A stretch of DNA of 64,000 nt, from positions 5,067 through 69,066 of IMG/VR virus record IMGVR_UViG_3300044638_001843. One strand, 5' to 3'. Positions 5,174-64,000 of this stretch are shown here, piece by piece. Positions within the stretch are counted from its first letter, which is position 1; the number at the start of each line of letters is the position of its first letter. The stretch is from a virus. Below the pieces are notes generated by a model, which was not told where the DNA came from, searched no databases, and saw only the letters and a list, made by a program, of their open reading frames with translations. The position numbers and the translations under genes are program-made.

Positions 5174-5247
5174 AGAAGGGTGGCTGAAGTAGATAGAGCG
5201 CATGCCTTATAAGCGTGAATATGTGGGTGCAACTCCCGCCCCTTCTA
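5174..5247 (+). tRNA. tRNA-Ile (TAT), atypical T-loop
   Basis: Acceptor AGAAGGG/CCCTTCT + A; anticodon arm CATGC-CT TAT AA-GCGTG; T arm GTGGG-TGCAACT-CCCGC; no encoded CCA. Confidence 0.7.
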
Positions 5248-7335: not shown

Positions 7336-7409
7336 ATCTCCATAGCTCAACTGGATAGAGCAACAGCCTTCTAAGCTGTAGGTTGCTGGTTCAAGTCCAG
7401 CTGGGGATG
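7336..7409 (+). tRNA. tRNA-Arg (TCT)
   Basis: Full cloverleaf; ACAGC-CT TCT AA-GCTGT; GCTGG-TTCAAGT-CCAGC. Confidence 0.93.
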
Positions 7410-7410
7410 C

Positions 7411-7492
7411 GGCTCCGTGGCGAAACTGGCATACGCAGTAGACTTAAAATCTGCCGCCGCAAGGCGTGGGGGTTCGATTCCCCCCGGAGTCA
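7411..7492 (+). tRNA. tRNA-Leu (TAA)
   Basis: GGCTCCG/CGGAGTC acceptor; GTAGA-CT TAA AA-TCTGC; long variable arm CGCC-GCAA-GGCG; GGGGG-TTCGATT-CCCCC. Confidence 0.93.
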
Positions 7493-7494
7493 TC

Positions 7495-7567
7495 GCCCTC
7501 TTAGCTCAGTTGGTAGAGCAGTTGACTTTTAATCAATCGGTCGTAGGTTCAAATCCTACAGGGGGCA
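7495..7567 (+). tRNA. tRNA-Lys (TTT)
   Basis: GCCCTCT/AGGGGGC acceptor; GTTGA-CT TTT AA-TCAAT; GTAGG-TTCAAAT-CCTAC. Confidence 0.94.
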
Positions 7568-48900: not shown

Positions 48901-51900
48901 TTTTATTAACGAAGTAATCTTGCCATCAGTTAAAGCAAAAGCTATAACAGACTTTGGTAATGGTAATACTGATTATGCTCCTGCTTGGAATGTTGGATAT
49001 GCTATAGCTCAGATTGCAATGGGTAGACGAGATGGTATTATGGATTCTAGATTTATTGAAGAGCAAGCATTTGTTACTCCACTATCTACAATGAATGACC
49101 TGGAAAACAATGCAAAGAATCTATCTGAGTCTATAAAAGTTAGACAACCACATAGAAAAAATGTATCTATGTTTGCCCCAATATCCCTTAAGCAATATGA
49201 AGAAGTATACAATGACTGGGCTTTACGGCAAAGAATAAACCATATTCTAAACGGTGATAGATACAAAGGATTGTCAGAAGAAGAACTACGAAAGAAACTA
49301 GCCGACATTCGTGGGGCTGAGTATATGCGTAGAGTTTCTGTATTAGCTAAGTCAACAACAATAATTCCCGATATTACCCCCACGGTAAATAACAGACAGT
49401 TATTTAATGAGCTTCCAACAATTGAAGATACACTAGATAGAACTCTAGAAACCTTACTAGACTTACCAGCAATTGGTGTTGCTGTAGTACATGACTCTGT
49501 ATTTTTAAGAACAAAAGTAGTTGTAGATAATGATGGTAAGAGTTTAAAATTCTCCAGACTAGAAGCATCACCTGGTGCTTGGTCTGCACGATCAATTATC
49601 AACGGTCAGCTTGTAGCCCAGTTAGGTTGGTATCAAACATATGGTATTACTGATGGTGCTATTAAAACATCGCTTGAAGAAACAGCTAAGGGTATTCAAG
49701 CTGGTAAACTGCAATTAAAGAATATAGATTATTTTGACTTTGACTTTAATGGTGTTCACCACATGTTAATGTTAATGTTGGCTTATAATATTCCAAACGA
49801 CGTAGGTACTAGAGGTGTAGCAAACCTTATAAAAAATCTAAATCTTTCTGAATGGTGGTCAACTGTAGATGCCAACAAGGATGACTTTTATACTCAAGTA
49901 TCTCTTCAAGTCCAGAAGAATATTGCAGAGCAGTATGTTAAACTATCTGAAAGAAAACAAACAGCACCGCTAACTAAAGATGAACAAGCTAAGTTTGATT
50001 CATTAGAAAAGTGGAATGCTATTTTAAACAGCATGGACGAAACAGGATCCAAGAGAACTTTTAGAGATTTCTTTAAGGCTGCTGTATTACCTCGTTTGTA
50101 TCAGGGCGGTATTCCTAGTATTTCACAAGCTCTATTTGAAAAAACTCAAGATCCAGAGTTTAAAGAAACATTCCCATCTATTGTTATTAACAATGCTGAT
50201 ATTGGTTTTTTGTTAAAGGATGCTGAGTTTAGCGGCGTTATTGGATTAATTAAGTTAATAGACGAAACAATAAATATTTCTGTCGATGGTAGAACTAAAC
50301 TAAAACAACAACTAGATGAGTGGAACCAAAAACTTTTCTACAAAGATGGTGTACAAAGACATCATGCAGTTCTTAAGGAAATGGGAAAGTCAACCGATTT
50401 TGGTCGCGGTATCATTGATGATACAACACTAACTAATCTTATCAATCTTCGTATTGATGCGGCTGCAAGAATGTTGGTAAAACCTAGTGATATTATGCAG
50501 TTTGGATCTTTAGAGTCAGCTATTAATAATAAGAAACAACGTCTAGCTAAACTGTGGGCTGACCGAATTAACGCGGGTCGAGAGTATGTAAGAACTAAGG
50601 GTGGTACTCTTACAACCCGTGGAGAATATATTAAGCTAGCTGAGATTATGGGTAGAGATCCCCAAGCTTGGAAAGACTTACCGTTACTGGCTGCTATAAA
50701 CACTGCTAATAGAACACCACTTAAGATTAGAGAAGAAGCTATTAGAGAAGCCACAGAAGAGTTTGGTGTTAATGTAAATGACTATCTTGGTAATTCTGGT
50801 AACTATCTTTTCTTCCAGAGTTTAGCCAGAGACTTGGCTGGTGGTCGTATGTACACAACACCATCCGGTATTTCATACCAGGGTCCTTCTTATTCTCAAG
50901 TCGCTACTCCAGCTCCTTTTGATCCAGCCGATGTAGACACTACAGCTTTATGGGAAATTGACGAGTTTTCTTTTGCTAGACTAGCAAGAGAAAATCCAGA
51001 AGAAGCCCGTAGATACATTACTCAATTAGTCCTACAGCAATATGAATTACGGTTGGCTACTGAGTATATGGCTAATGACTATAACGATAAAACTCTAGAG
51101 ACACCCGAAAGATTCCTAGAAGATTGGTCGCGCATTAGTAAAAAGGAAAGAGAATTCTATGCCAGACGGCGTAGTATAGAAACCCTAAGAACAGCTCAGG
51201 CAGAGGCTCAGATTGAATCCGTTGTTACACCCGGTGGTGCAAGACCTAACGCCAAGAACTGGATTAAAGAAGCTCGTAAGCGCGGCTTGCTATTAGAGCA
51301 GGGATTAAGATATCTTGCTTCTCCATCCCGAGTTATTGGGGATACCAGTAAAGCATTTGAAGAGTCTAATCAAAAAATGGGTATATTTGCATTTAGACCC
51401 AAGACTGCCGATATTGATATTACAGATCTACCTATTTACGCTTTAGCAGAATTAGCTATTGAACGCCGTATTGATAAAGAAAATGAAAACTGGGTAAGAG
51501 CAAGTAAGAAGAATAAAGCACCAAGTTCTGTAACAGATATTATTCCAGAACAGGCTATAGGGTACACTCATACAGTAAACCCAGAATCTTTACCATATGT
51601 TCCAAGAGAACTTATGTCACTGGGTTTACTTACTAATCTAACAGATGTATCAACTAAACTTGCCGTTGAGCAAGCTAGAATTCAAAGCAGACTTTATAGG
51701 TTTGCAAAGCAAAATGGATTAATGCATCTCTTACCGCGCGGTAGAGAAAACTGGGCTGCTGTTCATTTCATTAGAATGGCTCATGTCCGAGGTGGTTACC
51801 CACTACTAAGAAAACTTGGTAAGGTTTATAATGCAGATGAAAATACTTTAGTATCTGAATATAACTTAGGTGTATCAAAGTTCTTAACATCCATGTTTGA

Positions 51901-54900
51901 TATTATTGAGTATCAACACAATACAATGGATAAGGATGTAACACAGTTAGACTTTAATTACTTTGGTGGGTTTAATCCAAAGATGTTTAAGGGTATGCGT
52001 GGAAGTCCAACATACTACAATCTTCTTACAATGTTGTCTGATGCATCAGAACAACTAGGAAGTCTTAAGTATGGTCTTACTGTTTCATCAAGAACTAGAG
52101 TAGCAGGACCCGACTCGCAACCTATTGACGAAAACACAAGAACACTACCGGTAACCGTACAAGCTATGGATGCTGTTAACCTTGTGTTTATTCTTTACAA
52201 CTTAACAAAAGTAAAACAAGTAGCTACTGAATTAGTTAAAGCTAGAAATATTGCTGGTGTTGAATTTGATCCTGCTGGACAAGTAATACCTGAATCAATC
52301 CCAGCAAACGCAGCAGTTACATTGCTACCAGAAATTCTAAGTAGACCAGAGTTTACAGAAGCTGACATAAGATCCGTAGGGCTATATGTACTTTATAATG
52401 AGTATCAAAATACTGCTGAGCTTGTTGTTGATAAACCCACGGCTAATACAATGGATATTCAAACAGCCATTGGTCCAGTCCCACAAGTAAATGTTAATGA
52501 TAGTAAAACAAAGTATGCGTTCACACCAGAAATGTTAAACTCATTGTTACTTGCTTTAAGAAACTCTGTTGTACTAAACCAGGCTGAACTTGCTTATGCT
52601 ACTAATAAATCAATTGGTGAAAAGAAGTCAAACCTAGAGCGTGGCAATCTACAAAGAACATTAGAATATTACAATGGGGCTAGAGAACTAAAAGCCGATG
52701 AAGCTACAGTTTTCTCGGCTCTCCATGCTGGACTATCTCCACTGTATACTTTAGATGGTGGTATGTATGATGCCCGATATAATGTTCAGTATGAAATTTT
52801 AGATTCTATTAGATACTTAGCCAAAGAAAACTTTAATTTAATTTCTACTAAGTATTTAGATAGTCGATCTACACCGTTTACTGTAAAAGCATATGAACTA
52901 GCTTTGCTTATGCCACTTCAAAGAGCTATAGCAATTGCTGAAAATAACAATCTTAAGTCTGCTTTAAATACTATTAACAGTACTTTAAATAATAATCCAC
53001 AAGAGATTAGACAGCTATTACCAATTATTTCTTTGGCTATATCAAAGCCAACAATGGAACTAAATGCTATTAAAGCTCTTGTTGATTATACATTCAGTAG
53101 AGAAGGTATTTCAAAAGCCAAAGTTGATGCCCTAACTAGTGATATTCAGATTCTTTTAAATGTAGTTAGAAGCATTACAGATCCACAGTCTAATGAGTTC
53201 TATACACCAGTTAGAGCTTTCTTACAGCGGCTAGATGTACCAACTGATAAACTAAATGAACTAGATGCTACTGTTCAGTTTATTGCTTATCAGGAAGAAA
53301 GAGGTAAGAAACTAAACGCAGAACAACAGAATAAAGTTAGACTAGCCGTTTCTCACTCTATTAAAAACTTACAAGAAGATTCTCAATTAAGTCTTTCATT
53401 CTATGGAACTGGACCAAAAGAATCAGCTAATAAGTTTGGGAATGAAACAATATTCTTGTCTACATTTGTAAATTCAGGTGAACAACTAAATAATCAAATT
53501 AAGTCTTTAGGATTGGATGCACTAACAGAACAGATGTATAGAGCTATGATTGGATTTATTTTACATAAGCATCCAGAACTTGAAGGTCACTTGACTATTA
53601 GCATAGATGATGTTGAAGGAAATAGATTAGCTAAAATCCGTAAGGTTAATGATGTATTTAATATTGTCTTTGCTAAGTCTCCAAACACAATTAAAGCAGC
53701 AGTTGCTGGTAAAACAACTGAACAAGCTATTGAAGTAATAGCACATGAGCTATCCCATATTGCTTTAAACTATTCTAAGATTAGAGATAGAATTGGTTAT
53801 GAAGAAGCAATTGAAAGCTTAATGACAGACACCGGGCAAGAAGCAATAGAAAAAATGGTTACTAATGCTTTTGCTGGTGGGGTGCTAACTAGAAATGAAA
53901 TCACTAAACTAGTTTCTTACTATCAACAAAACTTGGAAGAAGCTTTGGTTATGTGGGGAAGCCAAATGCTTATTACAAGAGCAATGGGTAAAGATCGTGT
54001 TGAGCTAAAGGCTATAGAGGAAGAAAACAATATAGCTAGTAAGGTTAATTCTTGGTGGAAGAGAACCTTTAAATCTATTGAATACTTTGTAAATAATCTA
54101 GTTACATTCTTAGATGAAATGACTGGTAGTAGATTTGTTGGTGTATCAGACAAAGTAAACAGAGTCTTTAATGGATTCTTTGATGCTACTTCAGATCTTA
54201 GAATGGAAGACAAAGCCGTATACGATGATGTACTTGAAGAAAGTTTTATTATCTCAAATGCGGATGTATATTATAATCCTGGTTCAACATCTACTGAACG
54301 TACTGCTTATCTTGAAGAGCAAGAAAGAAATCAGAATCAGTACAGAAGATTAACCCAAGAGCTTAGTACACTGGATCCAAACTCAGCAGAATATGCAAGA
54401 GTTAAAAGAGAACTAGACTCTATTAGAGATAAGTGGCAAAATAATGTAGACCACTTAGGTATCTCTGATGAACTATACTATGATACATTAACTAGACTAC
54501 GCAACAGAAATGATGTTGTAGGTCGTGAATTTGATTATGCAGAAACAACAGAAGAAGAGATTGTACTAGCAGATCACATTATTAGAAAGCTGTCAGAGGT
54601 TCGTGGCAAGCGTGTCGATAGCCCAGGTACAGCTGCGTATCTAGCTAGACAAATGATGAATCTATTCTCAGGCACTGTGTCTATGCAAGACGATGGACAT
54701 GCAAGAAATAGATTAATCCAAACACTACAGAAGATTTCTACTTCTGTTTATCTTGTAACTGGTAATCAATCTGGCCAAACCTATAACTCTGCTTTTGGTA
54801 TTATTGTATCACTAGCGCACTTAATTGATGCCGAAGCACAAACAGTAGATTCATACTTTGAAGGTAACGGCGGATTAGATGGTATTAAACAAAACCAATA

Positions 54901-57900
54901 CCAAGTAAATCTATTGGTTAATCAAGTATCTTCTGTTTATAACCAAATTGTTTCAGAGTTTTCTTCAGCAATCCCAGTACCAGGCGCAACTAATAGATCT
55001 GGAGATATTATCCTAGAGTCATTTAGTTACCTAGCCAGTGGTAAGATTGATCCTTCATTTAATGAAAAGGAACAAGCTGCTATCCGTAGACTTGGAGATA
55101 CATATCGTAAGTCTTCAGAACTATTACATGGAATAATTACAGATGCTAATCTAAAAGATAGATCAAGACCATTCCATGATAGCTACCTTGCATTCAAGTT
55201 AGATATTGATCAGTTTAGAGAAGAAAAGAATAAAGCTGGTTATCAAACAAGAAGAACGCAGTTTATTCAATCTGTATCTTCTTTAATCAAAGCAAAACAA
55301 CTTTCACAGTTACAAGATCTTGATAGAGTACATCCGGTTACATTTATGTTGACTTCCGGGTTACCAACACTTAAGACATCTAACTCATCAGACATGTCTT
55401 CAGAACAAGAGTTTATTAGCTTTATTGAAAGAAACGCAAGTGGATCTACAAATCCAAATTCAGTAGAGGCTATTATATTTAACTCTATTCTTTCTTATGC
55501 TGCTCAGGTTAAAGAAGGATCTGTTGATTTAGCAACTAAAAAGGATCTCATTAGATCAGGTGCAACTGTTGGAAACTCGGTTGCATTGAAAGATTTAAAG
55601 AAAGGCTACAAGGCTTTACTAGAAGCAAGCACTAGTAGAACAGCTACTGTAACTGGATTGCTTACAGCACATACATCAGGTATTACCCCAGAACAAGTAA
55701 AGATAATCCAGAATGCAATAAAGAATACCATTACTTCTGATATTGGCAATCCACCCAATATGAAAGCAAAGCTTCAAGCTATGCGTTCTGAGAGATTCCC
55801 AATTAAGATCAAAGAAGAAAGAAATATCTTTAGTGCATCTACAAATACAATTCCAGAACTACTGGCAATAGACTTCTTAAATACTATTGGTTCTTCTGCT
55901 GCTATTACTTATAAGGATGACATCAACCTAACAATAGATGATATCTTTGGTGATAACTTTACTGAAGTACTTGGCGTAGAGGAAATGAGATCTATTCGTA
56001 GTGGCTTCTCCAGAGACATAAGATCTATTATTAAATCAATTGGATCTGGTTTAGGTCAGCAAGCTGTATCAAGTTCATTGATTTACAAGATGACTGGGGT
56101 ACAAGGGTATGATGTTCTTAAACTAATTAGGACTCTAAAGGCATATGTCGATGGAGCCAATAGACCAACTGGATCTCATATATCACAGGGTCAGTTTGAA
56201 AGAACCGAACAAGGTGTAAGAGCTAAACCCCTATCACAAGCAGAAGTCAAGTTACTTAGTGATGCCTTAACAGTATTGGAGCACAAGTATCAGTATATGT
56301 GGAACATGCGTTCTGCTGTATCTGGTGATGCCATTGGTAAGAATGCAATTAAGTTTACAACACAAGCTGCCCACCTAATTTGGGGTGGTAACCAGATTGC
56401 CGCTGGTATTCTTGTAGACTCTTCAGCAGCAGCCGTTGGTGCTATGATGCTAGGCGGTGCTGGTGGTGTACTTGGTTTCTATGGCAGATACATTGGAGAT
56501 GTCCTTAGATTAAGCTTTGGTGCATTTAGTGATGGATGGAAACAAACCCAGGTTCGTGGTGACTTTGCCGACTTTGCAGAAATACTTTGGGATACTAATA
56601 GTAACTTTGTTGAGTCATGGGAAAAGTTATATGGTGAAGTAGACTTTACTAGAAAAACCGGAAGACTGGCTAGTAGATTCTTAAGCTTTAACCAAGCACT
56701 AAATATGTCAACATCTATCTCTGCAAGAACAGCTTTGGCTAAAACTGCATTAGTACAACTCAATAGACAACTAAATACTAACAACCTAGAAGAAGTAAGA
56801 CGTATGCTTATTGATGGTGAATTGGAATCTGGTAACTATAGAGGATATGTAACTCTGATGAAAAAGCTAAAGAACAACGGCTTTAGAAAACTATCTTCAC
56901 CTGAAACAATTCTACGAATGAAAGCTGCTGGTATGTTTGAGGTTGGGGTTATCGAAAGCCTTAAGTTCTTAAAGCAATCAGGACCAATTAGTATTTCTCA
57001 GTATATGGACAAAATCCTAGATCTTGATAAAGATTTTAGCGTTAATGTAGATGGTGTTACCGTAAATAAACAAATGCTAATACAAGCTGTAGGAGCTATT
57101 GAAAAGTTCCAAGACTTGGCAGTTAAACAATCATTAATATCTTCTTCAGCTTTTGATGGTATAACAGATGATTCTCCACTAAGCAAGTTCTTAAGCTTGT
57201 ATAGATCATATTCAATTCTATTTGCTGGTCAGATGTTACTACGCAACAGTGCCAGAATGTCTACATCAAAGATGGCTGGACTCATGTTGGTATATACCAT
57301 TACCGATATTATGTATCAGACTATGCTTGCAGCAGCCAGCGGGTTCCTTGCTGGGGATGAGATTGAAAGATTACTAAGGGGTGAACCATCTGAAAAGGTA
57401 ATTAAACTTATTGCTAAAGCAGCAGTAAGAAACCCCATGTTTACTTTACAGGGCAACTTCTTGTTGGATACTACCTTGTTCTTGGCAGATACAGTTGCTG
57501 GTAACAAGGGATTAGAACCAGAGATTGCACCGCTAGGTGTTACTGCTATGGTACGATTACTAAAGAACCTAGCAACCAATACCAATACCTTTATCAATGC
57601 ACAGTCAGATGAAGAAAGAATTAAGTCAGCTTACAATGGTGGATTATATTTACTACCAATACTAAATCAAGCTTGGTTTAAAACTTTAATTAATCAGGGC
57701 TTAGCTACAGAAGCAAAGAAACAAACAATGGGTTCCTTTGATTCTGGAAGACGCAATAGTGAAGGTAGACCCATGAATACAGCATTTGCTACAGCTTATG
57801 CTGAATACGAAAACATGCAACTACCTACGCCAAACAATATAGCACAGGCTATACTTAAGTCATTGTATCAAACTGAAATGAATAACAAACTTCAGCAATA

Positions 57901-58087
57901 CATGCATCAGTTTAAAAAGAAACAAATGCCAAACCTAGGTCTAACAGCTCCAGAAACTCCAGTACCAGAGAAGCCAGTAGAAACAACTTCTACCAGCGAA
58001 GTCATGGTTGGACCTAAGCCAAGCACTGGTTCATCTCTACAAAAGGAAGCAACAACACCAATTAAAGCTCCAGACTCACTGAAGTAA
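45980..58087 (+). CDS. Giant virion protein, putative virion RNA polymerase with DEDDy exonuclease domain and HEXXH motif
   Basis: 4035 aa, AAGGAG RBS. FDIET/GFNNVGFD/YSRND; VVHDS; FDFDFNGVHH...DVGTRGVANL...DDFY; RDFFKAAVLPRLYQG; RDLAGGRMY...SYQG; HELSH. Confidence 0.75.
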   Translation: MGKCSEEVLNKIREELKSSGAEPETINTVVSLFEKSVETDASADLVSKTLTNSLFTTSDIEKLNKLISKFRRAKGDITKVTNDDLSEFTFLWSKWQAYMEGKVLIAEGFKTKETLELKKKLRKLESKFLSEGKIKEARTLNRLIRKIEATEKQNRNAGRFIRNIEFEGRLEKTKALLNAVNASYEFEASNNETIKKLNNTRFALVGELQRETDPEKKKEIQKKIDENVKETTTKTNEILLSKAFRKQQKADSTGQISLYEAVKELSSEIDKNSSTYRLALNELIDSRNTLEHDKQLFELAKQGIQVLNTSKALLDAIRKEKGGKVTVAELKAVIGDLGVSIDQLIIDTHNKVNPKEKAKSLKGSTELDNNTLSSIFNTLANLAIDQAFSNGIALGFEFSPEDQMLADNLKAASNNMDIENEDQVNNDTVMPKARTASKAKEETLSTREQKIKEFKEGTDFKKLYVMLKQALERVETLRKLPQFSEHISRDMVLAALGPQLHLLNPDIYFSSAVVTATSVARLTAPALSSLPVPPALEKAFANLGMDPRAIKGLPEVANPDEYARNWDRVISFDIETKGDEIFMISIRHSATEERLDPSIEQLVSNPAKGSIGNFTAYSKEDLLRFLRSLELMQNMGWKVAGFNNVGFDLASIAKSIGTEEASNLAARVALRSYDMYAWIKMQYGATVNLDNLATATLGRGKIKGVTGTSVVDLLLAAKTEEETSKALEYSRNDSDLVFEIIENLRSNPSRNLTVNVNNVDKSTVNLSLSNPLQTWQLAIFHSNTNSNFNGFFLEYNAAGVQPAINNFVGESSNAERTSRLLFNTEAVRDQLLLHMSLSLRADPDTAVVGETLIKEAERLTKKEQEVLVTQMKLMRTHRQAGIEAKKALLGSDGEPKFILSIIEGEPKYIEATTSTTAESQYEAAVIEAFNQFYLDMAGDRVPADQIVSRMNEKIVEYGFREKTGSETQADYIKAFINEVILPSVKAKAITDFGNGNTDYAPAWNVGYAIAQIAMGRRDGIMDSRFIEEQAFVTPLSTMNDLENNAKNLSESIKVRQPHRKNVSMFAPISLKQYEEVYNDWALRQRINHILNGDRYKGLSEEELRKKLADIRGAEYMRRVSVLAKSTTIIPDITPTVNNRQLFNELPTIEDTLDRTLETLLDLPAIGVAVVHDSVFLRTKVVVDNDGKSLKFSRLEASPGAWSARSIINGQLVAQLGWYQTYGITDGAIKTSLEETAKGIQAGKLQLKNIDYFDFDFNGVHHMLMLMLAYNIPNDVGTRGVANLIKNLNLSEWWSTVDANKDDFYTQVSLQVQKNIAEQYVKLSERKQTAPLTKDEQAKFDSLEKWNAILNSMDETGSKRTFRDFFKAAVLPRLYQGGIPSISQALFEKTQDPEFKETFPSIVINNADIGFLLKDAEFSGVIGLIKLIDETINISVDGRTKLKQQLDEWNQKLFYKDGVQRHHAVLKEMGKSTDFGRGIIDDTTLTNLINLRIDAAARMLVKPSDIMQFGSLESAINNKKQRLAKLWADRINAGREYVRTKGGTLTTRGEYIKLAEIMGRDPQAWKDLPLLAAINTANRTPLKIREEAIREATEEFGVNVNDYLGNSGNYLFFQSLARDLAGGRMYTTPSGISYQGPSYSQVATPAPFDPADVDTTALWEIDEFSFARLARENPEEARRYITQLVLQQYELRLATEYMANDYNDKTLETPERFLEDWSRISKKEREFYARRRSIETLRTAQAEAQIESVVTPGGARPNAKNWIKEARKRGLLLEQGLRYLASPSRVIGDTSKAFEESNQKMGIFAFRPKTADIDITDLPIYALAELAIERRIDKENENWVRASKKNKAPSSVTDIIPEQAIGYTHTVNPESLPYVPRELMSLGLLTNLTDVSTKLAVEQARIQSRLYRFAKQNGLMHLLPRGRENWAAVHFIRMAHVRGGYPLLRKLGKVYNADENTLVSEYNLGVSKFLTSMFDIIEYQHNTMDKDVTQLDFNYFGGFNPKMFKGMRGSPTYYNLLTMLSDASEQLGSLKYGLTVSSRTRVAGPDSQPIDENTRTLPVTVQAMDAVNLVFILYNLTKVKQVATELVKARNIAGVEFDPAGQVIPESIPANAAVTLLPEILSRPEFTEADIRSVGLYVLYNEYQNTAELVVDKPTANTMDIQTAIGPVPQVNVNDSKTKYAFTPEMLNSLLLALRNSVVLNQAELAYATNKSIGEKKSNLERGNLQRTLEYYNGARELKADEATVFSALHAGLSPLYTLDGGMYDARYNVQYEILDSIRYLAKENFNLISTKYLDSRSTPFTVKAYELALLMPLQRAIAIAENNNLKSALNTINSTLNNNPQEIRQLLPIISLAISKPTMELNAIKALVDYTFSREGISKAKVDALTSDIQILLNVVRSITDPQSNEFYTPVRAFLQRLDVPTDKLNELDATVQFIAYQEERGKKLNAEQQNKVRLAVSHSIKNLQEDSQLSLSFYGTGPKESANKFGNETIFLSTFVNSGEQLNNQIKSLGLDALTEQMYRAMIGFILHKHPELEGHLTISIDDVEGNRLAKIRKVNDVFNIVFAKSPNTIKAAVAGKTTEQAIEVIAHELSHIALNYSKIRDRIGYEEAIESLMTDTGQEAIEKMVTNAFAGGVLTRNEITKLVSYYQQNLEEALVMWGSQMLITRAMGKDRVELKAIEEENNIASKVNSWWKRTFKSIEYFVNNLVTFLDEMTGSRFVGVSDKVNRVFNGFFDATSDLRMEDKAVYDDVLEESFIISNADVYYNPGSTSTERTAYLEEQERNQNQYRRLTQELSTLDPNSAEYARVKRELDSIRDKWQNNVDHLGISDELYYDTLTRLRNRNDVVGREFDYAETTEEEIVLADHIIRKLSEVRGKRVDSPGTAAYLARQMMNLFSGTVSMQDDGHARNRLIQTLQKISTSVYLVTGNQSGQTYNSAFGIIVSLAHLIDAEAQTVDSYFEGNGGLDGIKQNQYQVNLLVNQVSSVYNQIVSEFSSAIPVPGATNRSGDIILESFSYLASGKIDPSFNEKEQAAIRRLGDTYRKSSELLHGIITDANLKDRSRPFHDSYLAFKLDIDQFREEKNKAGYQTRRTQFIQSVSSLIKAKQLSQLQDLDRVHPVTFMLTSGLPTLKTSNSSDMSSEQEFISFIERNASGSTNPNSVEAIIFNSILSYAAQVKEGSVDLATKKDLIRSGATVGNSVALKDLKKGYKALLEASTSRTATVTGLLTAHTSGITPEQVKIIQNAIKNTITSDIGNPPNMKAKLQAMRSERFPIKIKEERNIFSASTNTIPELLAIDFLNTIGSSAAITYKDDINLTIDDIFGDNFTEVLGVEEMRSIRSGFSRDIRSIIKSIGSGLGQQAVSSSLIYKMTGVQGYDVLKLIRTLKAYVDGANRPTGSHISQGQFERTEQGVRAKPLSQAEVKLLSDALTVLEHKYQYMWNMRSAVSGDAIGKNAIKFTTQAAHLIWGGNQIAAGILVDSSAAAVGAMMLGGAGGVLGFYGRYIGDVLRLSFGAFSDGWKQTQVRGDFADFAEILWDTNSNFVESWEKLYGEVDFTRKTGRLASRFLSFNQALNMSTSISARTALAKTALVQLNRQLNTNNLEEVRRMLIDGELESGNYRGYVTLMKKLKNNGFRKLSSPETILRMKAAGMFEVGVIESLKFLKQSGPISISQYMDKILDLDKDFSVNVDGVTVNKQMLIQAVGAIEKFQDLAVKQSLISSSAFDGITDDSPLSKFLSLYRSYSILFAGQMLLRNSARMSTSKMAGLMLVYTITDIMYQTMLAAASGFLAGDEIERLLRGEPSEKVIKLIAKAAVRNPMFTLQGNFLLDTTLFLADTVAGNKGLEPEIAPLGVTAMVRLLKNLATNTNTFINAQSDEERIKSAYNGGLYLLPILNQAWFKTLINQGLATEAKKQTMGSFDSGRRNSEGRPMNTAFATAYAEYENMQLPTPNNIAQAILKSLYQTEMNNKLQQYMHQFKKKQMPNLGLTAPETPVPEKPVETTSTSEVMVGPKPSTGSSLQKEATTPIKAPDSLK

Positions 58088-58170
58088 ATCGACTTAGGGG
58101 TCAGAAATTTCTGAGGGGTTAGGTAAGGAATTAGAGGGTGGATATCCCCCTCTATCCCCCCCAATCAAAC

Positions 58171-58210
58171 AAAGCAACCAGAGAACTAATAATTCTCTGG
58201 TTGTTTTTTT
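58171..58210 (+). terminator. Intrinsic terminator after the giant gene
   Basis: AAAGCAACCAGAGAA-loop-TTCTCTGGTTGTTTTTTT. Confidence 0.8.
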
Positions 58211-58286
58211 CCCAGGTAGATTCCCTACCTATCCCTATCACTGGGGTTCAGTGAATCTAGGTCCTATAGACCAGAAAGATTAGGGG

Positions 58287-58430
58287 ATGCAAACCTACAA
58301 GTTTGAAATCCTGCATAGCACACGCGGACGGGTTACCGTTACAGTCAAGGCTCATAGCCTTGAGAAGGCGTGGATGCGCCTTTACGTCAAGCACACGCCA
58401 GTCCACATTGTTCGATGGTGGCAGTGCTGA
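58287..58430 (+). CDS. Small early protein (47 aa)
   Basis: MQTYKFEILHSTRGRVTVTVKAHSLEKAWMRLYVKHTPVHIVRWWQC; stop abuts the first hairpin repeat. Confidence 0.55.
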   Translation: MQTYKFEILHSTRGRVTVTVKAHSLEKAWMRLYVKHTPVHIVRWWQC

Positions 58431-58471
58431 GAAATTCCCCCAGGTTAATCCCTGGGGGATTTCTTTATGGG
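58431..58471 (+). promoter_or_regulatory. Hairpin + TTATGGG element, copy 1
   Basis: GAAATTCCCCCAGG-TTAATC-CCTGGGGGATTTC-TTTATGGG. Confidence 0.7.
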
Positions 58472-58535
58472 TAGCATATGCTGCCTCTGTTAGGCCCCTA
58501 CAGTCTTAGGGGTTGTCTTGCAAAGGAATAAGAAG

Positions 58536-58742
58536 ATGGATATTCTTATCACTCGATTCCTGACAAACGAGGAAACCGTTTTGTACTCAGTAGAAAATGA
58601 CGGTTACACCGTTCCCCGCGAGATGTTCGCTCTTTCCCCAAAGGAAAGCAATTTGTGGACGTGGAAGGAAGTTTGCCACTACGTTTGGTACTGGTCTCAC
58701 GAAACCAATGTCACTGTCACCGTCCGCTACAAGAAAGGGTAA
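58536..58742 (+). CDS. Small early hypothetical protein
   Basis: AAGGA upstream; MDILITRFLTNEETV... Confidence 0.6.
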   Translation: MDILITRFLTNEETVLYSVENDGYTVPREMFALSPKESNLWTWKEVCHYVWYWSHETNVTVTVRYKKG

Positions 58743-58780
58743 GTCGTTTTCGGGTAAGATGTGATTAATGGCTTGCCCGA

Positions 58781-58819
58781 AGCATCCCCCGGAGAAATCC
58801 GGGGGGTGTTTTTTATGGG
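58781..58819 (+). promoter_or_regulatory. Hairpin + TTATGGG element, copy 2
   Basis: AGCATCCCCCGGA-GAAA-TCCGGGGGGTGTT-TTTTATGGG. Confidence 0.7.
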
Positions 58820-58913
58820 TTGAATGTAACCCAAGCCCTACTGTTGGGCAAGCTCATGGCTAGAGCTATATAAGTCAAGCCCTAACTCCTTCTTATAGAG
58901 AGGAAACCACCCA

Positions 58914-60791
58914 ATGAACATTCCATTCTTGGGTAAGGGTGAGTATACCGTTCACGACCTGGTGACGCTCATCCAGCCGGATGCGGTCCTTGCGGGGATC
59001 GACCCGGCATCGTTCTCAGTTGTTGGCGGCATCATTGGTAAGATGCTGTCAACGGGAGCTTACAAGATGCACTGCGAGGTTGTTCGTGGTGGATCTCAGG
59101 TGTTCAAGGCTTGGACGCTTCGGCGGCAGGCTGAGGACATCCTGAAGCTCATGCCTGAGTGTCGCAGCTGGTCTAGCCACGCAAGTGGCATGGCCGCAAT
59201 GGACAAGGTTACCTGGGTGCGCGATGAGCGCATGTTCAACCTGGCCATTGATGCTGCCTGTCTGCTGGGCAAGAAGCCCTATGAGGTGGTTCACAACGGT
59301 CGTTCAAATACCGTGATTGAACCTGTGTTCCTCATGGAGTACTTGGCTAAGTGGCAGATCGAAAACTTGGCCAAGCTTCCTTCGGGAAGCGAGATCAAGT
59401 TCTGGCACTCGGCAGATCGTCGTGGCGGTCGCTTCTATGCGTACAACCGCGACGGACTGGTTTTGCCTACGATGTACGATGGAGATGTGTGCGCTCTCTA
59501 TCGGCTGGCAGAAGGCAACCCTGTCACCAAGGAAGACATTGAGCTGTGGTCTACCCTGGTCGAGAAGGAGTACGGTGTCACGCGGGAAGAGATGTGCCGC
59601 GTGGCAACTGATCGTGAGTTTGCTCTGGGTTTGTTTTCCAACCCAATCGGCAAGCTGAAGTCAGTTGGAAGTAAAAAGCGGAATGTGCTGCGGTTCATCC
59701 AAAACTGCTACCACATCAGTGACGCTCTTGCATCCGGCGTGTCTCATGGGCATATTGGATATGATGCCCATGCTCAGGGTCCGGTGGCTACCTCCTTGGC
59801 CATCGGTGGGAGCCGTACCTGTCACGATGTGATGATGGGTCGGAAGGTCTACGAAGGCATTACGGAGTGCCTTGGCATCGTTCCGTCGGAGGTTGAGTCG
59901 TTTGTTCGTTCCCGTGAGTGGGCAAAGAATGTTCTCACGGTGACGAACTACACCGGGCGTGTGTTGGGCCAGGTGTTCCTCTACGGGATGGGCGGAGAGC
60001 TGGAGGACGAGGATGGTTCTGTCCTCGCTCCGTTCAACCTTGCAAATGCTGTGATCAAGGTTGACAAGCTCCGCTCTGGTCTGGAGCTGATCAAGGACTG
60101 GCCCCAGTCCAAGATCAAGGAACTGGCAGCATCTGTTTCTGCCATGTCGGTGAACGCGGCCCTTCGCTACGACAGCAAGCTGTTCAAGTTTGGTGACCTG
60201 TGGTTGGCTCACCAGAAGGCGAAGGAGGAGGTGTTCTCATACACCTACGGTGGGATTACGTTCCCTCACTTCAAGATCGCACCCGCGCTCTCATGGTTCC
60301 CGGTTGATGAGGCTACCAAGATGCGGGATCTGCCTCAGATCTCCGTGTCCCTGCCTCATTCGGTGCTGGATCTGTGCAAGAAGAACGGGTGGCCTACGCG
60401 CTTCCAGCCGCGTATGGCTCCGTTCACCAAGGGCTTCACTGATGACAACGGGCCTGTTGTGCCGTGGTCAGACAGCGGAGAACCCAATCGGGTTGATACC
60501 CCGAACGGGTCCTTGGTGGCAGTTACCACTTGTCAGGATGGCAATGTCCTGACTAACACCATCAATGAGATGGGTGGACAGGTGGCGACCACGCGGCACG
60601 ATGCGATCACTGTTCGCATTGGTCCAGCCCTGAGAACGGTGCAGGAAGTGTACACTCGTCATATGTACCGCGAGTGTGTTGGCAACTACCGTCAGGTCCT
60701 TCGGGAAGAGTTGGGCAAGTTGTTCCCCAACATCACTGAGGATGTGTCGGAAGAGCAGTTTGTTCTTGCCGCCAAGAACATCTTCCGCTGA
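58914..60791 (+). CDS. Highly divergent T7-type single-subunit RNA polymerase (625 aa)
   Basis: FWHSADRRGGRFY; motif A IGYDAHAQG; motif B REWAKNVLTVTNYTG (R-x3-K-x7-Y); TCQDGNVL; motif C TRHDAI; canonical order; GAGGA RBS. Confidence 0.72.
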   Translation: MNIPFLGKGEYTVHDLVTLIQPDAVLAGIDPASFSVVGGIIGKMLSTGAYKMHCEVVRGGSQVFKAWTLRRQAEDILKLMPECRSWSSHASGMAAMDKVTWVRDERMFNLAIDAACLLGKKPYEVVHNGRSNTVIEPVFLMEYLAKWQIENLAKLPSGSEIKFWHSADRRGGRFYAYNRDGLVLPTMYDGDVCALYRLAEGNPVTKEDIELWSTLVEKEYGVTREEMCRVATDREFALGLFSNPIGKLKSVGSKKRNVLRFIQNCYHISDALASGVSHGHIGYDAHAQGPVATSLAIGGSRTCHDVMMGRKVYEGITECLGIVPSEVESFVRSREWAKNVLTVTNYTGRVLGQVFLYGMGGELEDEDGSVLAPFNLANAVIKVDKLRSGLELIKDWPQSKIKELAASVSAMSVNAALRYDSKLFKFGDLWLAHQKAKEEVFSYTYGGITFPHFKIAPALSWFPVDEATKMRDLPQISVSLPHSVLDLCKKNGWPTRFQPRMAPFTKGFTDDNGPVVPWSDSGEPNRVDTPNGSLVAVTTCQDGNVLTNTINEMGGQVATTRHDAITVRIGPALRTVQEVYTRHMYRECVGNYRQVLREELGKLFPNITEDVSEEQFVLAAKNIFR

Positions 60792-60805
60792 ACTCACCCG
60801 CAACT

Positions 60806-60843
60806 TCCCCCCTAGGTAATCCCTAGGGGGGATTTCTTATGGG
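60806..60843 (+). promoter_or_regulatory. Hairpin + TTATGGG element, copy 3
   Basis: TCCCCCCTAGG-TAATC-CCTAGGGGGGA-TTTCTTATGGG. Confidence 0.7.
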
Positions 60844-60867
60844 CATATTGCCCAGAAAGGTTTTGCC

Positions 60868-61176
60868 ATGTTAAAGAAACTGTGGAATCGGTTCCGTCAG
60901 CAAGACAAGTTGGATGCAACCAAGAAGGATCTGGAACTCGCAAATGATGAATTGCACCGGGTCGAGTCGCTGTGCTACATGCTTCACCACACTTTGCTTT
61001 ACTCAATTGCCTATCCTGAGTGCGAAGGCATTGATGACATGGTGGTGGCAGCAGATGGAAAGCTCGACAAGGCAAAGGAAGTGATTGCCTCTCACATTTC
61101 AGAGTGCATGAACTACAGCTCGTTCCATTTCGGGAATCCCCACACTGGTGATGGGTTCCCGCCAGATCACCTCTGA
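60868..61176 (+). CDS. Early hypothetical protein
   Basis: AAAGG upstream; 102 aa bounded by hairpin elements. Confidence 0.65.
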   Translation: MLKKLWNRFRQQDKLDATKKDLELANDELHRVESLCYMLHHTLLYSIAYPECEGIDDMVVAADGKLDKAKEVIASHISECMNYSSFHFGNPHTGDGFPPDHL

Positions 61177-61193
61177 CCCAAACCCGGGTCATT

Positions 61194-61231
61194 TCCCCCT
61201 AGGATAAAACCTAGGGGGATTTCTTTATGGG
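61194..61231 (+). promoter_or_regulatory. Hairpin + TTATGGG element, copy 4
   Basis: TCCCCCTAGG-ATAAAA-CCTAGGGGGA-TTTCTTTATGGG. Confidence 0.7.
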
Positions 61232-61288
61232 AAAGTTTATCTAGGTTTGTATCCCAATAACCTTAAACCTAGTATATGGAGATGTCAT

Positions 61289-61813
61289 ATGACAACTTCA
61301 CAGTTTGTGCTTGGCTCAGTCGAGTTCGTCCCTACCAAGGGTTCCGCCCCCATGTTCTTCAGCACGGGGGAGCACGCCTATCGGGTGTGGACCAACTCCA
61401 CCAGCTGGCGCGTGGACGTTCGGGGACACCGCACGAAGTTCACCCACCTGGACATCATCCAGATGGGGTTCGGTGTCAAGATCCACCAGGAGATGCAGAC
61501 CCGCTACGGAGCGGATCTGGACGGTTGGGTGTACCTCAGCAATGGGGTTACAATTAGCCGTGACCCTAGCGGGTCTACTCCGCCCTGGGTGGCCGAAGGC
61601 AAGTTGGTGCTTCGGTCGAGGTTCTTTCTGGCTCCGTGCCGGGAACGAAACCTGACTGCCTGCCTGCGAGAATGGGGTCAGACCCCCGCAGAAGCAGAGA
61701 GCTACTGGAACTCGGCTTGGAACAAGCGTGCCGTGGAACTGGAGTACCCGGCTCACCGCATCGTTCCCTCCAAGAACGGGCATCGCATGCCAGAATTCAC
61801 TGTTCTGGTCTGA
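61289..61813 (+). CDS. Early hypothetical protein
   Basis: GGAG RBS; MTTSQFVLGSVEFVP...; bounded by hairpin elements. Confidence 0.65.
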   Translation: MTTSQFVLGSVEFVPTKGSAPMFFSTGEHAYRVWTNSTSWRVDVRGHRTKFTHLDIIQMGFGVKIHQEMQTRYGADLDGWVYLSNGVTISRDPSGSTPPWVAEGKLVLRSRFFLAPCRERNLTACLREWGQTPAEAESYWNSAWNKRAVELEYPAHRIVPSKNGHRMPEFTVLV

Positions 61814-61828
61814 TGCTCCGTTCTCCCT

Positions 61829-61864
61829 ACCCCCTAGGTAATACCTGGGGGGTTTTCTATTTGG
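61829..61864 (+). promoter_or_regulatory. Hairpin element, copy 5 (variant tail)
   Basis: ACCCCCTAGG-TAATA-CCTGGGGGGT-TTTCTATTTGG. Confidence 0.6.
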
Positions 61865-61879
61865 TTATTATTACCCCCT

Positions 61880-62130
61880 GGTAACCTGTACCTACCCATC
61901 CGTACCCTTGAGTACCCCAAGTAGTACCTAGATGTTAACTAGTTCTACAGTAGGGGGCCTACGGTTTGTACCTAGATGGTGGGTAGCCTGAGTACCTGGG
62001 CCTACGCTAAGGGGCCTAGGATGCCCTAGGAAGCCACGGAATACCTAAAAGGCCCTGTGGTAGCCCCAAATCTACCCGGCTTCTAATGGGATTTACCGAA
62101 ATTTACCCATGAACCTGGGTGTACCTGCTT
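61880..62130. repeat. Non-coding tract with dispersed GTACCY and CCTAG/CCTA repeats
   Basis: About seven GTACC(T/C) copies and several CCTA(G) words in about 250 nt with no credible ORF. Confidence 0.55.
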
Positions 62131-62264
62131 TTTTCCCACAAATACCCTAAAGCTCGCGCCACACTTCGTGTGTCGTGGGTGAAAACGCAAGTTTTCGTTG
62201 TCTGGGTTGGCTTTGGTTGTGCTTGTTGCATACCCCTAACCATCCCCAATACAAGGAGGCATCT

Positions 62265-62525
62265 ATGACGGATGCAGAACTGAAGGTCCGACAGGAGGCC
62301 CTGGCTTCCCTCGGAATCACCACCTCCGTGACTGAGCACTTCGCCAAGGCGGAAGCTCGCCAAGCTCGGCGCGAGGCCCTGTCGGAACAGGACAGGCTCA
62401 AGCTCAAGCTCAACGGCTTGGTTGGAGGAGTCATCTTGAATCCCAAGGCTACGGAGGCCACAATCTCCGCAGCTGTGGCCAAGGCGACGGTGATCCAGAA
62501 CCAACTGGCTGAACTGGAACAGTAA
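62265..62525 (+). CDS. Early hypothetical helical protein
   Basis: AAGGAGG RBS; MTDAELKVRQEALASLG... Confidence 0.75.
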   Translation: MTDAELKVRQEALASLGITTSVTEHFAKAEARQARREALSEQDRLKLKLNGLVGGVILNPKATEATISAAVAKATVIQNQLAELEQ

Positions 62526-62569
62526 ATCCAGATCCCCCCACCCCTGGGGAAACCTACGGGTGGCGATTT

Positions 62570-63265
62570 CTAGTACCCCAAACGGGGTATAACGGTGGCT
62601 GCAACCACCATAGAACCGCAAGCAACCTCTCCCAGGCGGTATATAAATAGGGGGACACATAATAACCGCTGGTTTCCTTGCAGGGAATACAGCTATGGAA
62701 AGCCTATGTCACAGGCAAGTACTTACGGTTAAGGTTATTGGCCTAGGTAGAGGATAACCTAGTTAAAACCTCACAAACTTCACGGCGGAGCCGTTGCAAC
62801 GGTGGCCGCAATAGGATACTGGGTAGGCCGCAACCTATCCAGTAAACGCCCCGGCAAGGGTGTAGCAGGAGTTGTCTACCCTGTGGTAATATTATTAGCA
62901 CGATCCGTTTAGACTCGGATCATAGGAATAATGGTAATCCAGGACTTATTCCAACGCAAACGACTGGGTACTCGACTATGCGAGTATAAATAGAAATTAG
63001 GCATAGTGCGGCTACGGTTTTGTTGCGCAACAAACTGTAGCGTCTTGGTTTACTAACAGTCCCACAAAGCTGGGTAGGCTATGTCAGGTAAAGTGAACAG
63101 TCCTGACCGCTTGTTCAAACTGTTACCCTACTATAGTAGGCTGACCCCGATATAAAGCAAATAAGGGGTAGTAATAACCTAGGCTAAGGACCTAACCCAC
63201 CCTGGCTTAGAGCAAGCTAATAGGGTTACTAGGCAGTCTATGGGGAAACCTGTAGACTGTCTTTC
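62570..63265 (+). ncRNA. Candidate large structured non-coding RNA (about 700 nt)
   Basis: No credible + strand ORF; more than a dozen consecutive hairpins, many with G-U pairs and GCAA-containing loops; ends in terminator-like hairpin. Confidence 0.6.
63231..63264 (+). terminator. Terminator-like hairpin closing the structured tract
   Basis: AGGCAGTCTATGGG-GAAA-CCTGTAGACTGTCT-TT; short U tract. Confidence 0.55.
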
Positions 63266-63448
63266 CGGCAGTCAAATAAAGATGTGCATTAAGAAAGGTC
63301 CCCTTTGGAAAACTGGGATGTACTTGCAGACTGGGAAGCCTTAATGGATTCCTATCTATCCGACGAATAATGTTTGTTTACCTAACTGTGTTGCTATCTT
63401 TGCTAGGGATAGCTACACTAATCCATGTACTAGCAGAGGTGATAACTT

Positions 63449-63703
63449 ATGTCAGAAAGTCAAGCCGTAATCCCTAACATTCGTGTTGATGTGTGGAAGG
63501 TTAATTCAGATAATCCTAAGTCGCCCCAACTTAATGGATATGTCACAATTAATGGAACCAGGTATCCTATTTCACTGTGGGCTAATACTTCAGATAACCC
63601 AAAGGCTCCGGCCTTCAAGGGTAAGCTGAGTAAGCCAAGTCCAAAGGAAGTTACCTTTGTTCCTGTGACCCCTGTTTCTGTTCCTGATCCACTCCCGTTC
63701 TGA
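63449..63703 (+). CDS. Small putative ssDNA-binding protein (DUF736-like) with SSB-type tail
   Basis: GAGGT RBS; duplicated W-x3-SDNPK(S/A)P-x3-G unit; ends PDPLPF. Confidence 0.6.
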   Translation: MSESQAVIPNIRVDVWKVNSDNPKSPQLNGYVTINGTRYPISLWANTSDNPKAPAFKGKLSKPSPKEVTFVPVTPVSVPDPLPF

Positions 63704-63713
63704 CGAACTATCC

Positions 63714-63746
63714 GGGTAGCCTAGGTTAATCCCTAGGCTACCTCTT
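63714..63746 (+). promoter_or_regulatory. Hairpin related to the early repeat
   Basis: GGTAGCCTAGG-TTAATC-CCTAGGCTACC; same TTAATC loop as copy 1. Confidence 0.55.
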
Positions 63747-63829
63747 TAACCTAGCATATAGCTAGGGCTTTAAACCTAGGTATTATTATTACTATAGTAT
63801 TAATATTACCTAGGTATACCTAGGAGTAT

Positions 63830-64000
63830 ATGGCAATGTATAATTCGTACACTGAGGTGATCAAAGAAGTAACTAAGGAATTGGGTATCAAGGTTATTGC
63901 CCATACCTATGAAGGAGAGTACCAAATTACCAACTGTTATCTCCTATCAAATGGAGATAAGTATGCCCTTCTTTGGGTATACCAAGGCACTTGTGCCTTG
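63830..64000 (+). CDS. Hypothetical protein (3'-truncated)
   Basis: AGGAG RBS; MAMYNSYTEVIKEVTKELG... open to window end. Confidence 0.6.
   Translation, partial: MAMYNSYTEVIKEVTKELGIKVIAHTYEGEYQITNCYLLSNGDKYALLWVYQGTCAL

Follow-up and report, generated by a model that had tools for sequence, protein, structure and literature searches.

T7-like phages are the textbook case of a single phage RNA polymerase (RNAP) that succeeds the host enzyme. According to PMC4496689, RNAPII of phage N4 (gp15 + gp16) is a minimal enzyme of 673 amino acids (aa) whose N-terminal domain and thumb are truncated and which is an early product, serves the next transcription class and requires the cofactors gp1 and gp2; the N4 virion RNAP (vRNAP) uses hairpin promoters; and the mitochondrial RNAPs are factor-dependent and unable to open promoters alone (Table 1 of that source). 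Here we describe a gene for a compact single-subunit RNAP of 625 aa (58914..60791, + strand, ATG start) in a lake-water T7-like phage that also encodes a canonical T7-type RNAP. The DNA analyzed (hereafter the window) is a stretch of 64,000 nt, corresponding to bases 5067-69066 of the 69,066-bp IMG/VR virus record IMGVR_UViG_3300044638_001843, which is rated complete. A full-text literature search found no published description of a compact second RNAP ahead of the canonical one in T7-like phages.

Predicted fold and comparison with known polymerases

An AlphaFold2 (AF2) model of the compact RNAP was built from a 9-sequence alignment (pLDDT 84.3, pTM 0.83). Foldseek, a check suggested in a first-pass annotation of the window, confirmed the similarity to T7 and mitochondrial RNAPs, which were the best of 73 PDB matches at E <= 1e-3 (E 1.6e-9), and RNAPs of T7-like phages were at the top among viral models (BFVD). 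The best structural matches were T7-type RNAPs (1cez, 1s76, 8dh5; Z 15.8-19.6, 430-476 residues aligned); in the VIA-align comparison with the T7 RNAP elongation complex (Z 19.6, rmsd 3.8, 432 aligned residues), model residues 67-624 fall on T7 residues 264-882. VIA-align to the mitochondrial RNAPs (yeast Rpo41, human POLRMT) gave Z 15-17.5; these have large N-terminal extensions, and the compact RNAP is far shorter. Family A DNA polymerases ranked below the RNAPs (apicoplast PolA, Z ~13 with ~300 residues aligned; Klenow fragment, Z 10.7), so that the predicted fold is nearer to T7 and mitochondrial RNAPs than to family A DNA polymerases (Z 15-19.6 vs up to 13), and the compact RNAP has the T/DxxGR element that is specific to RNAPs.

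A wide fold search, independent of Foldseek, gave the same ranking, and it was in this search alone, not among the best 50 VIA-align matches, that the N4 enzymes were seen. N4 RNAPII gp16 (6dt7_B) had Z 11.9 with 302 aligned residues, a value that is not strictly comparable with the 15-19.6 above because the gp16 chain is much shorter, and N4 vRNAP (mini-vRNAP 3q0a; gp50 9pnq), a member of the same superfamily, had Z 10.6-11.5 with 443-454 aligned residues. The compact RNAP is about equal to N4 RNAPII in total size; unlike the N4 heterodimer, which is split after T/DxxGR, it is one polypeptide, and it is structurally nearer to T7 and mitochondrial RNAPs than to N4 RNAPII. The backbone of the phage is also T7-like and not N4-like. 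No homologues of N4 gp1 and gp2 were found in the whole record by tblastn, a sequence search alone (best E 0.028 and 0.75). Unlike N4 vRNAP, which is a domain in a virion protein of >3000 aa, the compact RNAP is free-standing.

The main difference in architecture from T7 RNAP lies at the N-terminus. T7 RNAP has ~420 residues before T/DxxGR and the phage's own T7-type RNAP has 398, vs 167 in the compact RNAP. Structural alignments start at model residue ~67-72 vs T7 residue ~264-274; most of the T7 N-terminal domain is thus absent, as the first-pass annotation had noted, including the promoter-binding domain (~300 aa). The first 84 residues (58914..59165, + strand) look like a small winged-helix domain: of the best 50 matches in the wide fold search, 21 cover just residues 1-7 to 73-92 (Z 4.3-5.1, rmsd 2.1-3.8), and most of these are DNA-binding domains of the winged-helix kind, among them cullin WHB, Fur/PerR, MecI/BlaI, RTP, MukF, ORC, and histone H5. 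With such modest Z values this resemblance is a lead only, but if the winged helix is real, a small DNA-binding domain may replace the promoter-binding domain of T7 RNAP. On the model, the compact RNAP appears as a core of ~540 residues plus a small, possibly DNA-binding, N-terminal domain.

Sequence searches and transitive homology

Direct sequence searches gave almost nothing. The 625-aa protein matched zero Pfam families at E <= 1, no PHROG family, no PDB sequence (phmmer and profile search), and none of 50,697 phage records (tblastn), and its hhalign comparison with the phage's own T7-type RNAP was not significant as a single sequence and reached a probability of 0.5% as a profile. HMMER, run exhaustively against 1.84 billion representatives, retrieved nine proteins, including six full-length ones (32-38% identity) and three fragments; a word-indexed protein search found two close relatives (96% and 62%), its profile version found no more, and a metagenome scan added just four further near relatives.

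The link to known RNAPs is provided by compact RNAPs that occupy the same place in related phages. We refer to these as type I (586-713 aa, GC-rich at 0.50-0.58) and to the RNAP in the window and its family as type II. Using hhalign, type II matches type I with a probability of 99.25% (E 5.3e-20, 436 columns), which places D284 on the invariant motif-A Asp, K338/Y346 on the motif-B Lys/Tyr, and H562-D563 on IHDS of type I. Type I in turn matches T7-type RNAPs (100%, E 1.1e-44) from T7-type residue 295 onward, and 7 out of 10 tested type I ORFs pass Pfam RNA_pol (PF00940) with E 2.5e-12 to 7.7e-48. The first-pass annotation had called the ORF a compact, very divergent RNAP, and both the predicted fold (Z 19.6) and the hhalign match to type I (E 5.3e-20) bear this out. 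Taken together, structure and transitive homology indicate a single-subunit RNAP in which the N-terminal domain of T7 RNAP is missing. It is a real, compact second RNAP of a new type that Pfam does not see, and probably an active one.

Conservation of the active site

The five motifs read from the translation in the first-pass annotation were confirmed in position and occur in canonical order, with invariant catalytic residues. On the + strand they are the T/DxxGR-like block DRRGGRFY (aa 168-175; 59415..59438; one residue longer than canonical in the family alignment), motif A YDAHAQG (aa 283-289; 59760..59780; catalytic Asp284 on strand 280-285 of the model), motif B or O-helix REWAKNVLTVTNYTG (aa 334-348; 59913..59957; Lys338 and Tyr346, helix 334-346), pre-motif C CQDGNVL (aa 540-546, nt 60531), and motif C RHDA (aa 561-564, nt 60594), the last two spanning 60531..60605. 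His562 and Asp563 are at a beta-hairpin turn between strands 557-561 and 564-568 of the AF2 model. As in T7-type RNAP (for which we take the corresponding T7 residues to be D537, R627, K631, Y639, H811, and D812), the order is T/DxxGR, A, B, C, the Lys, Tyr, His, and both Asp are in place, and a conserved aromatic residue is found near the C-terminus; unlike T7-type RNAP, the compact RNAP has a longer T/DxxGR block, an unconserved motif-B Arg, a winged-helix-like N-terminus, and no Pfam match.

Residues D284, K338, Y346, T347, R561, H562, and D563 are invariant wherever covered, both in the 9-sequence family alignment and in a 5-sequence subset (catalytic D284 in 8 of 8 covering sequences, H562 and D563 in 9 of 9). 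The T/DxxGR block reads D-x-R-x-G-R-x-Y, with R170 and R173 in 8/8 sequences and D168 in 7/8, and aligns to DxRGR of type I and T7-type RNAP. By the terms of the first-pass annotation, free variation of the motifs among homologues would have refuted the assignment; the catalytic residues are fixed, and three other positions vary. The first G of 'GGR' is retained in 6/8 sequences; position 334 in motif B is R in 4/9 and K in 1/9 type II sequences, and the Arg is not kept in type I either; and the motif-B Gly gives way to Thr-[G/S/A], with the G of 'Y-T-G' present in 2/9 sequences. Since the catalytic residues are fixed and these 'peculiar' residues are variable, the latter are not features of the family.

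The gene is a single uninterrupted ORF in the window and in all eight full-length homologues, and full length is held across the family. Among four close variants dN/dS is 0.08-0.19 at dS ~0.1; a fifth pair had too few changes for judgement. The compact RNAP is under purifying selection with an intact active site.

The variable residues also bear on a proposal of common ancestry between the compact RNAP and a domain of a giant 4035-aa protein (45980..58087, + strand), which the first-pass annotation had based on a shared GGR and Y-x-G. We rejected such a special relationship, as these residues are unconserved in either family and hhalign between the giant segment (aa 1064-2249) and the compact family gave a probability of 0.4% (E 0.15, 36 columns). 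The relatives of the compact family are instead the type I RNAPs (E 5.3e-20) and, via these, the T7-type RNAP of the phage itself (E 1.1e-44). The polymerase domain of the giant protein is itself putative. Its core (aa 1064-2249) contains invariant HD, D..F.G.H, and K-x7-Y..G blocks and a block like the T/DxxGR context of T7-type RNAPs, in non-canonical order; an AF2 model of the segment from four sequences had a pLDDT of 32.9; hhalign to T7-type RNAPs gave a probability of 0.3% (E 0.23); the segment profile had no match in the PDB and the whole protein no Pfam match. A weak lead comes from the ESM Atlas, where the segment scores 0.85 to a cluster with RNA_pol in 36% of its members. We also observed by eye DIET, NNVGFD, and YSRND blocks at aa ~570-740 of the giant protein (47680-48210), resembling a DEDD 3'-5' exonuclease.

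Distribution and exchange of the compact RNAP

We gathered 80 related loci with the family of the phage's T7-type RNAP. Among the 24 loci with at least 8.77 kb upstream, 23 have an upstream compact RNAP (3 type II and 20 type I; three of these 23 ORFs are truncated by the locus edge), and three further loci with shorter flanks have type I. The type I profile was made from 16 ORFs of these loci, and independent type I matches were found in L033, L037, L065, L081, L086, L091, and L093 (E 5e-09 to 9e-172). Across the clade, the compact RNAP is located ~6.5-8.5 kb upstream of the canonical RNAP gene. A compact second RNAP is present in nearly all members of this clade, which consists of uncultured aquatic T7-like podoviruses of 65-70 kb. 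The sole locus without it (1/24), the IMG/VR contig L055, whose T7-type RNAP is 74% identical, is also without the GC-rich island in which the gene resides (see below). DNA of this island was found in 24 listed sequencing runs from 21 studies (lake, fresh, and waste water), nine of which hold at least half of the sampled words; one run may represent the sample of origin.

The compact RNAP is far more variable than its surroundings. Compared with the complete relative G003, core genes are 67-91% identical and the T7-type RNAP 83%, vs 35% for the compact RNAP and 21% for the giant protein. The 1452-aa and 918-aa proteins encoded before the giant gene (38857-45968) have no detectable match in G003. 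More generally, compact RNAPs are 32-38% identical between phages whose T7-type RNAPs are at least 83% identical. In a quick IQ-TREE tree of T7-type RNAPs, type I and type II carriers are interleaved in the crown group, and well-supported branches require at least two type changes; the interleaving of type II with the commoner type I among close relatives points to exchange of the gene as a module. The clearest case is locus L006, which, compared with a 99% relative of the phage, has 88.8% nucleotide identity over 818 bases just 3' of the giant gene and carries a compact RNAP that is 32% identical without any nucleotide match. Such a near-identical flank next to a 32% RNAP makes the compact RNAP an exchangeable, highly variable module, and divergent alleles between near-identical flanks suggest strong diversifying pressure on what would be the phage's first-made enzyme.

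Genomic context and composition

The large genes all lie on the + strand, and their order is that of a T7-like phage, i.e. T7-type RNAP, primase-helicase, family-A DNA polymerase, ribonucleotide reductase, portal, capsid, terminase, and three very large proteins. The canonical T7-type RNAP is represented in the window by the C-terminal 774 of its 812 aa (2..2326, + strand; Pfam RNA_pol 2.2e-83). The compact ORF follows the giant gene after 826 non-coding bases. The last 860 bases of the record repeat the first ones at high identity, apart from a divergent middle; such end repeats with a mixed middle indicate a wrap-around assembly of two strains and a true genome of ~68.2 kb, and the 99% relative is 68,287 bp long. 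A related contig spans the join and contains the giant protein, the compact ORF, small genes, and the T7-type RNAP in this order, so the compact ORF heads the early region, ~7.3 kb upstream of the canonical RNAP. This gene order in relatives upholds the early placement made in the first-pass annotation. In the non-coding gap, we observed that 140-200 bases after the giant-gene stop (58088-58250, including a hairpin at 58175-58203 and a T-run) are nearly invariant in four lineages whose flanking proteins are 32-62% identical; candidate explanations for this block are a packaging signal or genome end, a strong terminator, and an RNA.

The compact RNAP gene lies in a GC-rich island (58200..63100) directly downstream of the giant gene, defined by composition (GC 0.47-0.61 vs 0.34-0.42 elsewhere; GC3 of 0.59-0.73 in island genes vs 0.23-0.39). 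An assembly chimera was considered for this block and rejected, as the island is present at the same place in 5/5 type II-relative loci and also in many type I loci. Codon usage follows the same divide: the compact RNAP uses ATA in 0/29, AGA in 1/36, TTA in 0/54, and AAA in 1/35 of the respective codons, vs 49/261, 149/214, 133/414, and 139/271 in the giant gene. The phage encodes four tRNAs (Ile-TAT, Arg-TCT, Leu-TAA, and Lys-TTT, at 5174-5247 and 7336-7567), which read exactly the codons favoured by late genes and shunned by island genes. By avoiding these codons the compact RNAP would be translatable at once with the host tRNA pool, and the codon usage of the island fits genes translated ahead of the phage tRNAs; this account explains the composition only in part, since non-coding stretches of the island have a high GC content as well.

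Evidence for expression comes from RNA libraries, as assembled contigs that carry no transcript starts or ends and leave contig-free parts of the island uninformative. Short contigs of the compact RNAP gene were found in RNA libraries of two studies (depth 2-3.4), a weak sign of its transcription because DNA carry-over is not excluded.

Proposed role and alternative explanations

We think it fairly probable that the compact RNAP is a catalytically competent member of the T7/mitochondrial superfamily that acts as an early relay transcriptase. The enzyme would consist of thumb, palm, and fingers, with the T7 N-terminal domain swapped for a ~80-residue, possibly winged-helix domain, and would represent the form (type II) in which this phage carries the second RNAP of its clade. 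It would be made among the first proteins, translated with the host tRNA pool, and would transcribe the next block, consisting of early genes with a higher AT content and probably also the gene of the T7-type RNAP, thereby forming a relay between early and later transcription as N4 RNAPII does. Because the N-terminal domain of T7 RNAP is missing, promoter recognition and opening probably depend on a DNA-binding domain at the enzyme's own N-terminus or on a partner protein. Sigma-70-like sites are fewer than expected in 57.9-64.0 kb (2 observed vs 5.2 expected), with zero upstream of the compact RNAP gene. A fuller scheme, which we regard as speculative and rather unlikely in its entirety, has three polymerases in relay, all of them encoded by the phage: a polymerase domain in the 4035-aa protein, once injected, would transcribe the island; the compact winged-helix RNAP would transcribe the early genes including that of the T7-type RNAP; and the T7-type RNAP would make the late RNAs, the compact RNAP being hypervariable and exchangeable as a target of host defence.

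Several points weigh against the early relay role of the compact RNAP. The structure is a prediction from nine sequences. The non-conserved arginine of motif B, four residues ahead of the Lys, presumably corresponds to the conserved R627 of T7 RNAP. PF00940 applied to the whole record matches the 812-aa RNAP alone and misses the compact one. No promoter was identified for the enzyme, and repeated k-mers and one pattern revealed no convincing promoters of the T7 type. The activity of the enzyme and its timing, as well as the templates and cofactors that it would use, are inferred. Finally, a set of hairpin elements in the island, described next, does not co-vary with the RNAP allele. Their sequence tracks the phage backbone: L006, with its 32%-identical RNAP, has the same hairpin sequences as the window, and similar hairpins occur in L005 and L007, which carry type II, and in L032 and L051, which carry type I.

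The element occurs in six copies on the + strand. It has a GC-rich hairpin with TTTCTT(T)ATGGG behind it, after which there is usually another, small hairpin. Copy 1 (58436..58470; hairpin + TTTCTTTATGGG) is ahead of the first island ORF, copy 2 (58786..58818) ~100 nt upstream of the RNAP start, and copy 3 (60806..60842) 15 nt past the RNAP stop; they are followed by copy 4 (61194..61230), copy 5 with a variant tail (61829..61865), and copy 6, a variant at the AT-rich border of the island (63715..63755). Relatives have bipartite units of other sequence in which pairing is preserved. Because the hairpin sequence tracks backbone and not allele, we do not read the elements as enzyme-specific promoters, and the candidate of co-evolving promoters specific to the compact RNAP was rejected.

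A more general version of this idea is clearly unlikely in our judgement, namely that the compact RNAP or the injected giant protein is an N4-style hairpin reader that starts at extruded or single-stranded hairpins and makes transcripts from the following GGG. For N4 vRNAP there is such a precedent (PMC4496689), and the elements here have suggestive properties: all six are confined to the island, one precedes its first ORF, where there is no upstream gene to terminate, compensatory stem changes across lineages maintain pairing, the second small hairpin begins with GG at a fixed short distance, and the first hairpin of L045 and L049 has no T-run and would make a poor intrinsic terminator. Besides tracking the backbone rather than the allele, however, every element lies 15-18 nt past a stop codon, the tail in the lineage of the window (TTTCTTTAT) suits an ordinary intrinsic terminator, the assembled RNA-library contigs have no ends at the elements, and L024 and L037 (type I) show none around the RNAP gene. 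The elements may act as terminator, promoter, or processing site.

It is decidedly unlikely that the compact RNAP serves mainly for genome entry by transcription, or for the synthesis of R-loops or primers at an origin close to the end of the genome. T7-type phages are known to internalize their DNA by transcription, and the gene is at the probable leading end, beside the near-invariant non-coding block of 140-200 nt. The phage, however, already has a T7 gp4-type primase-helicase; the record is a wrap-around assembly without a mapped origin or physical end; and entry by transcription would still make the compact RNAP an early transcriptase.

A polymerase dedicated to the structured non-coding RNAs of the island is very unlikely. 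Non-coding DNA makes up about 1.6 kb of the island, and in it Rfam identifies a pistol ribozyme (62970-63022; 43 bits vs a gathering score of 34.5). RNA-library contigs from two studies extend from 62836-62840 to 62998-63000 and thus end within the pistol match, and this segment (62836-63000) has the greatest contig depth of the island (39 and 51 vs 2-5 on genes), which fits an abundant ~163-nt RNA freed by ribozyme cleavage. Contig depth is a poor measure of expression, however, and no promoter connects the RNAP with these RNAs. Most improbable of all is an inactive polymerase relic, decoy, or structural protein: the extreme sequence turnover (32-38% identity) and the lost motif-B arginine would suit it, but both catalytic Asp, K338, Y346, and H562 are invariant, dN/dS is low (0.08-0.19), and full length is kept.

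Other features of the GC-rich island

Downstream of the compact RNAP gene, a 102-aa cassette ORF (60868..61176, + strand) lies between two hairpin elements. A precise deletion from one element to the next has removed the span 60836-61225, and the ORF with it, in the 99% relative L002 and in a contig of run X10; L002 and L006 have additional cassettes upstream of the RNAP gene. This arrangement is similar to the promoter-early stem-loop (PeSL) cassettes of T4-type phages as described by Arbiol et al. 2010 (PMC2839356), where short repeated stem-loop units lie between small early genes and genes are gained, lost, and swapped; here likewise L002 and X10 have lost or never gained the 102-aa ORF, and relatives differ in how many cassettes lie upstream. 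Unlike PeSL, the hairpin units here have no visible sigma-70-type promoter.

A 174-aa ORF (61289..61813, + strand; 188 aa from a TTG at 61247) is conserved beside type II RNAPs. We observed that the ORFs following type II and type I RNAPs (61289-61813 in the window; 2853-3488 in L045) have in common [ST]EA-x3-[FW]-x3-WN ... H near the C-terminus, and hhalign between the two groups gave a probability of 4.5% (E 0.0089), a lead only. At the island border, an 84-aa protein (63449..63703, + strand) has two W-x-N-x3-NPK-x-P repeats and a DPLPF end. It matches no Pfam family and is the most widely retained island gene, with 10 homologous ORFs in 8 related loci of both RNAP types, including two copies in L032. 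When 63141-64000 of the window is compared with positions 1-660 of L004, the divergent middle encodes two versions of this 84-aa protein.

Implications

In a widespread aquatic clade of uncultured phages, the canonical RNAP is preceded by a second RNAP of much smaller size. Type II widens the range of single-subunit RNAP sequences known so far, since neither Pfam nor a direct comparison of its profile with T7-type RNAPs detects it. The compact RNAPs are also candidates for compact orthogonal transcription tools.

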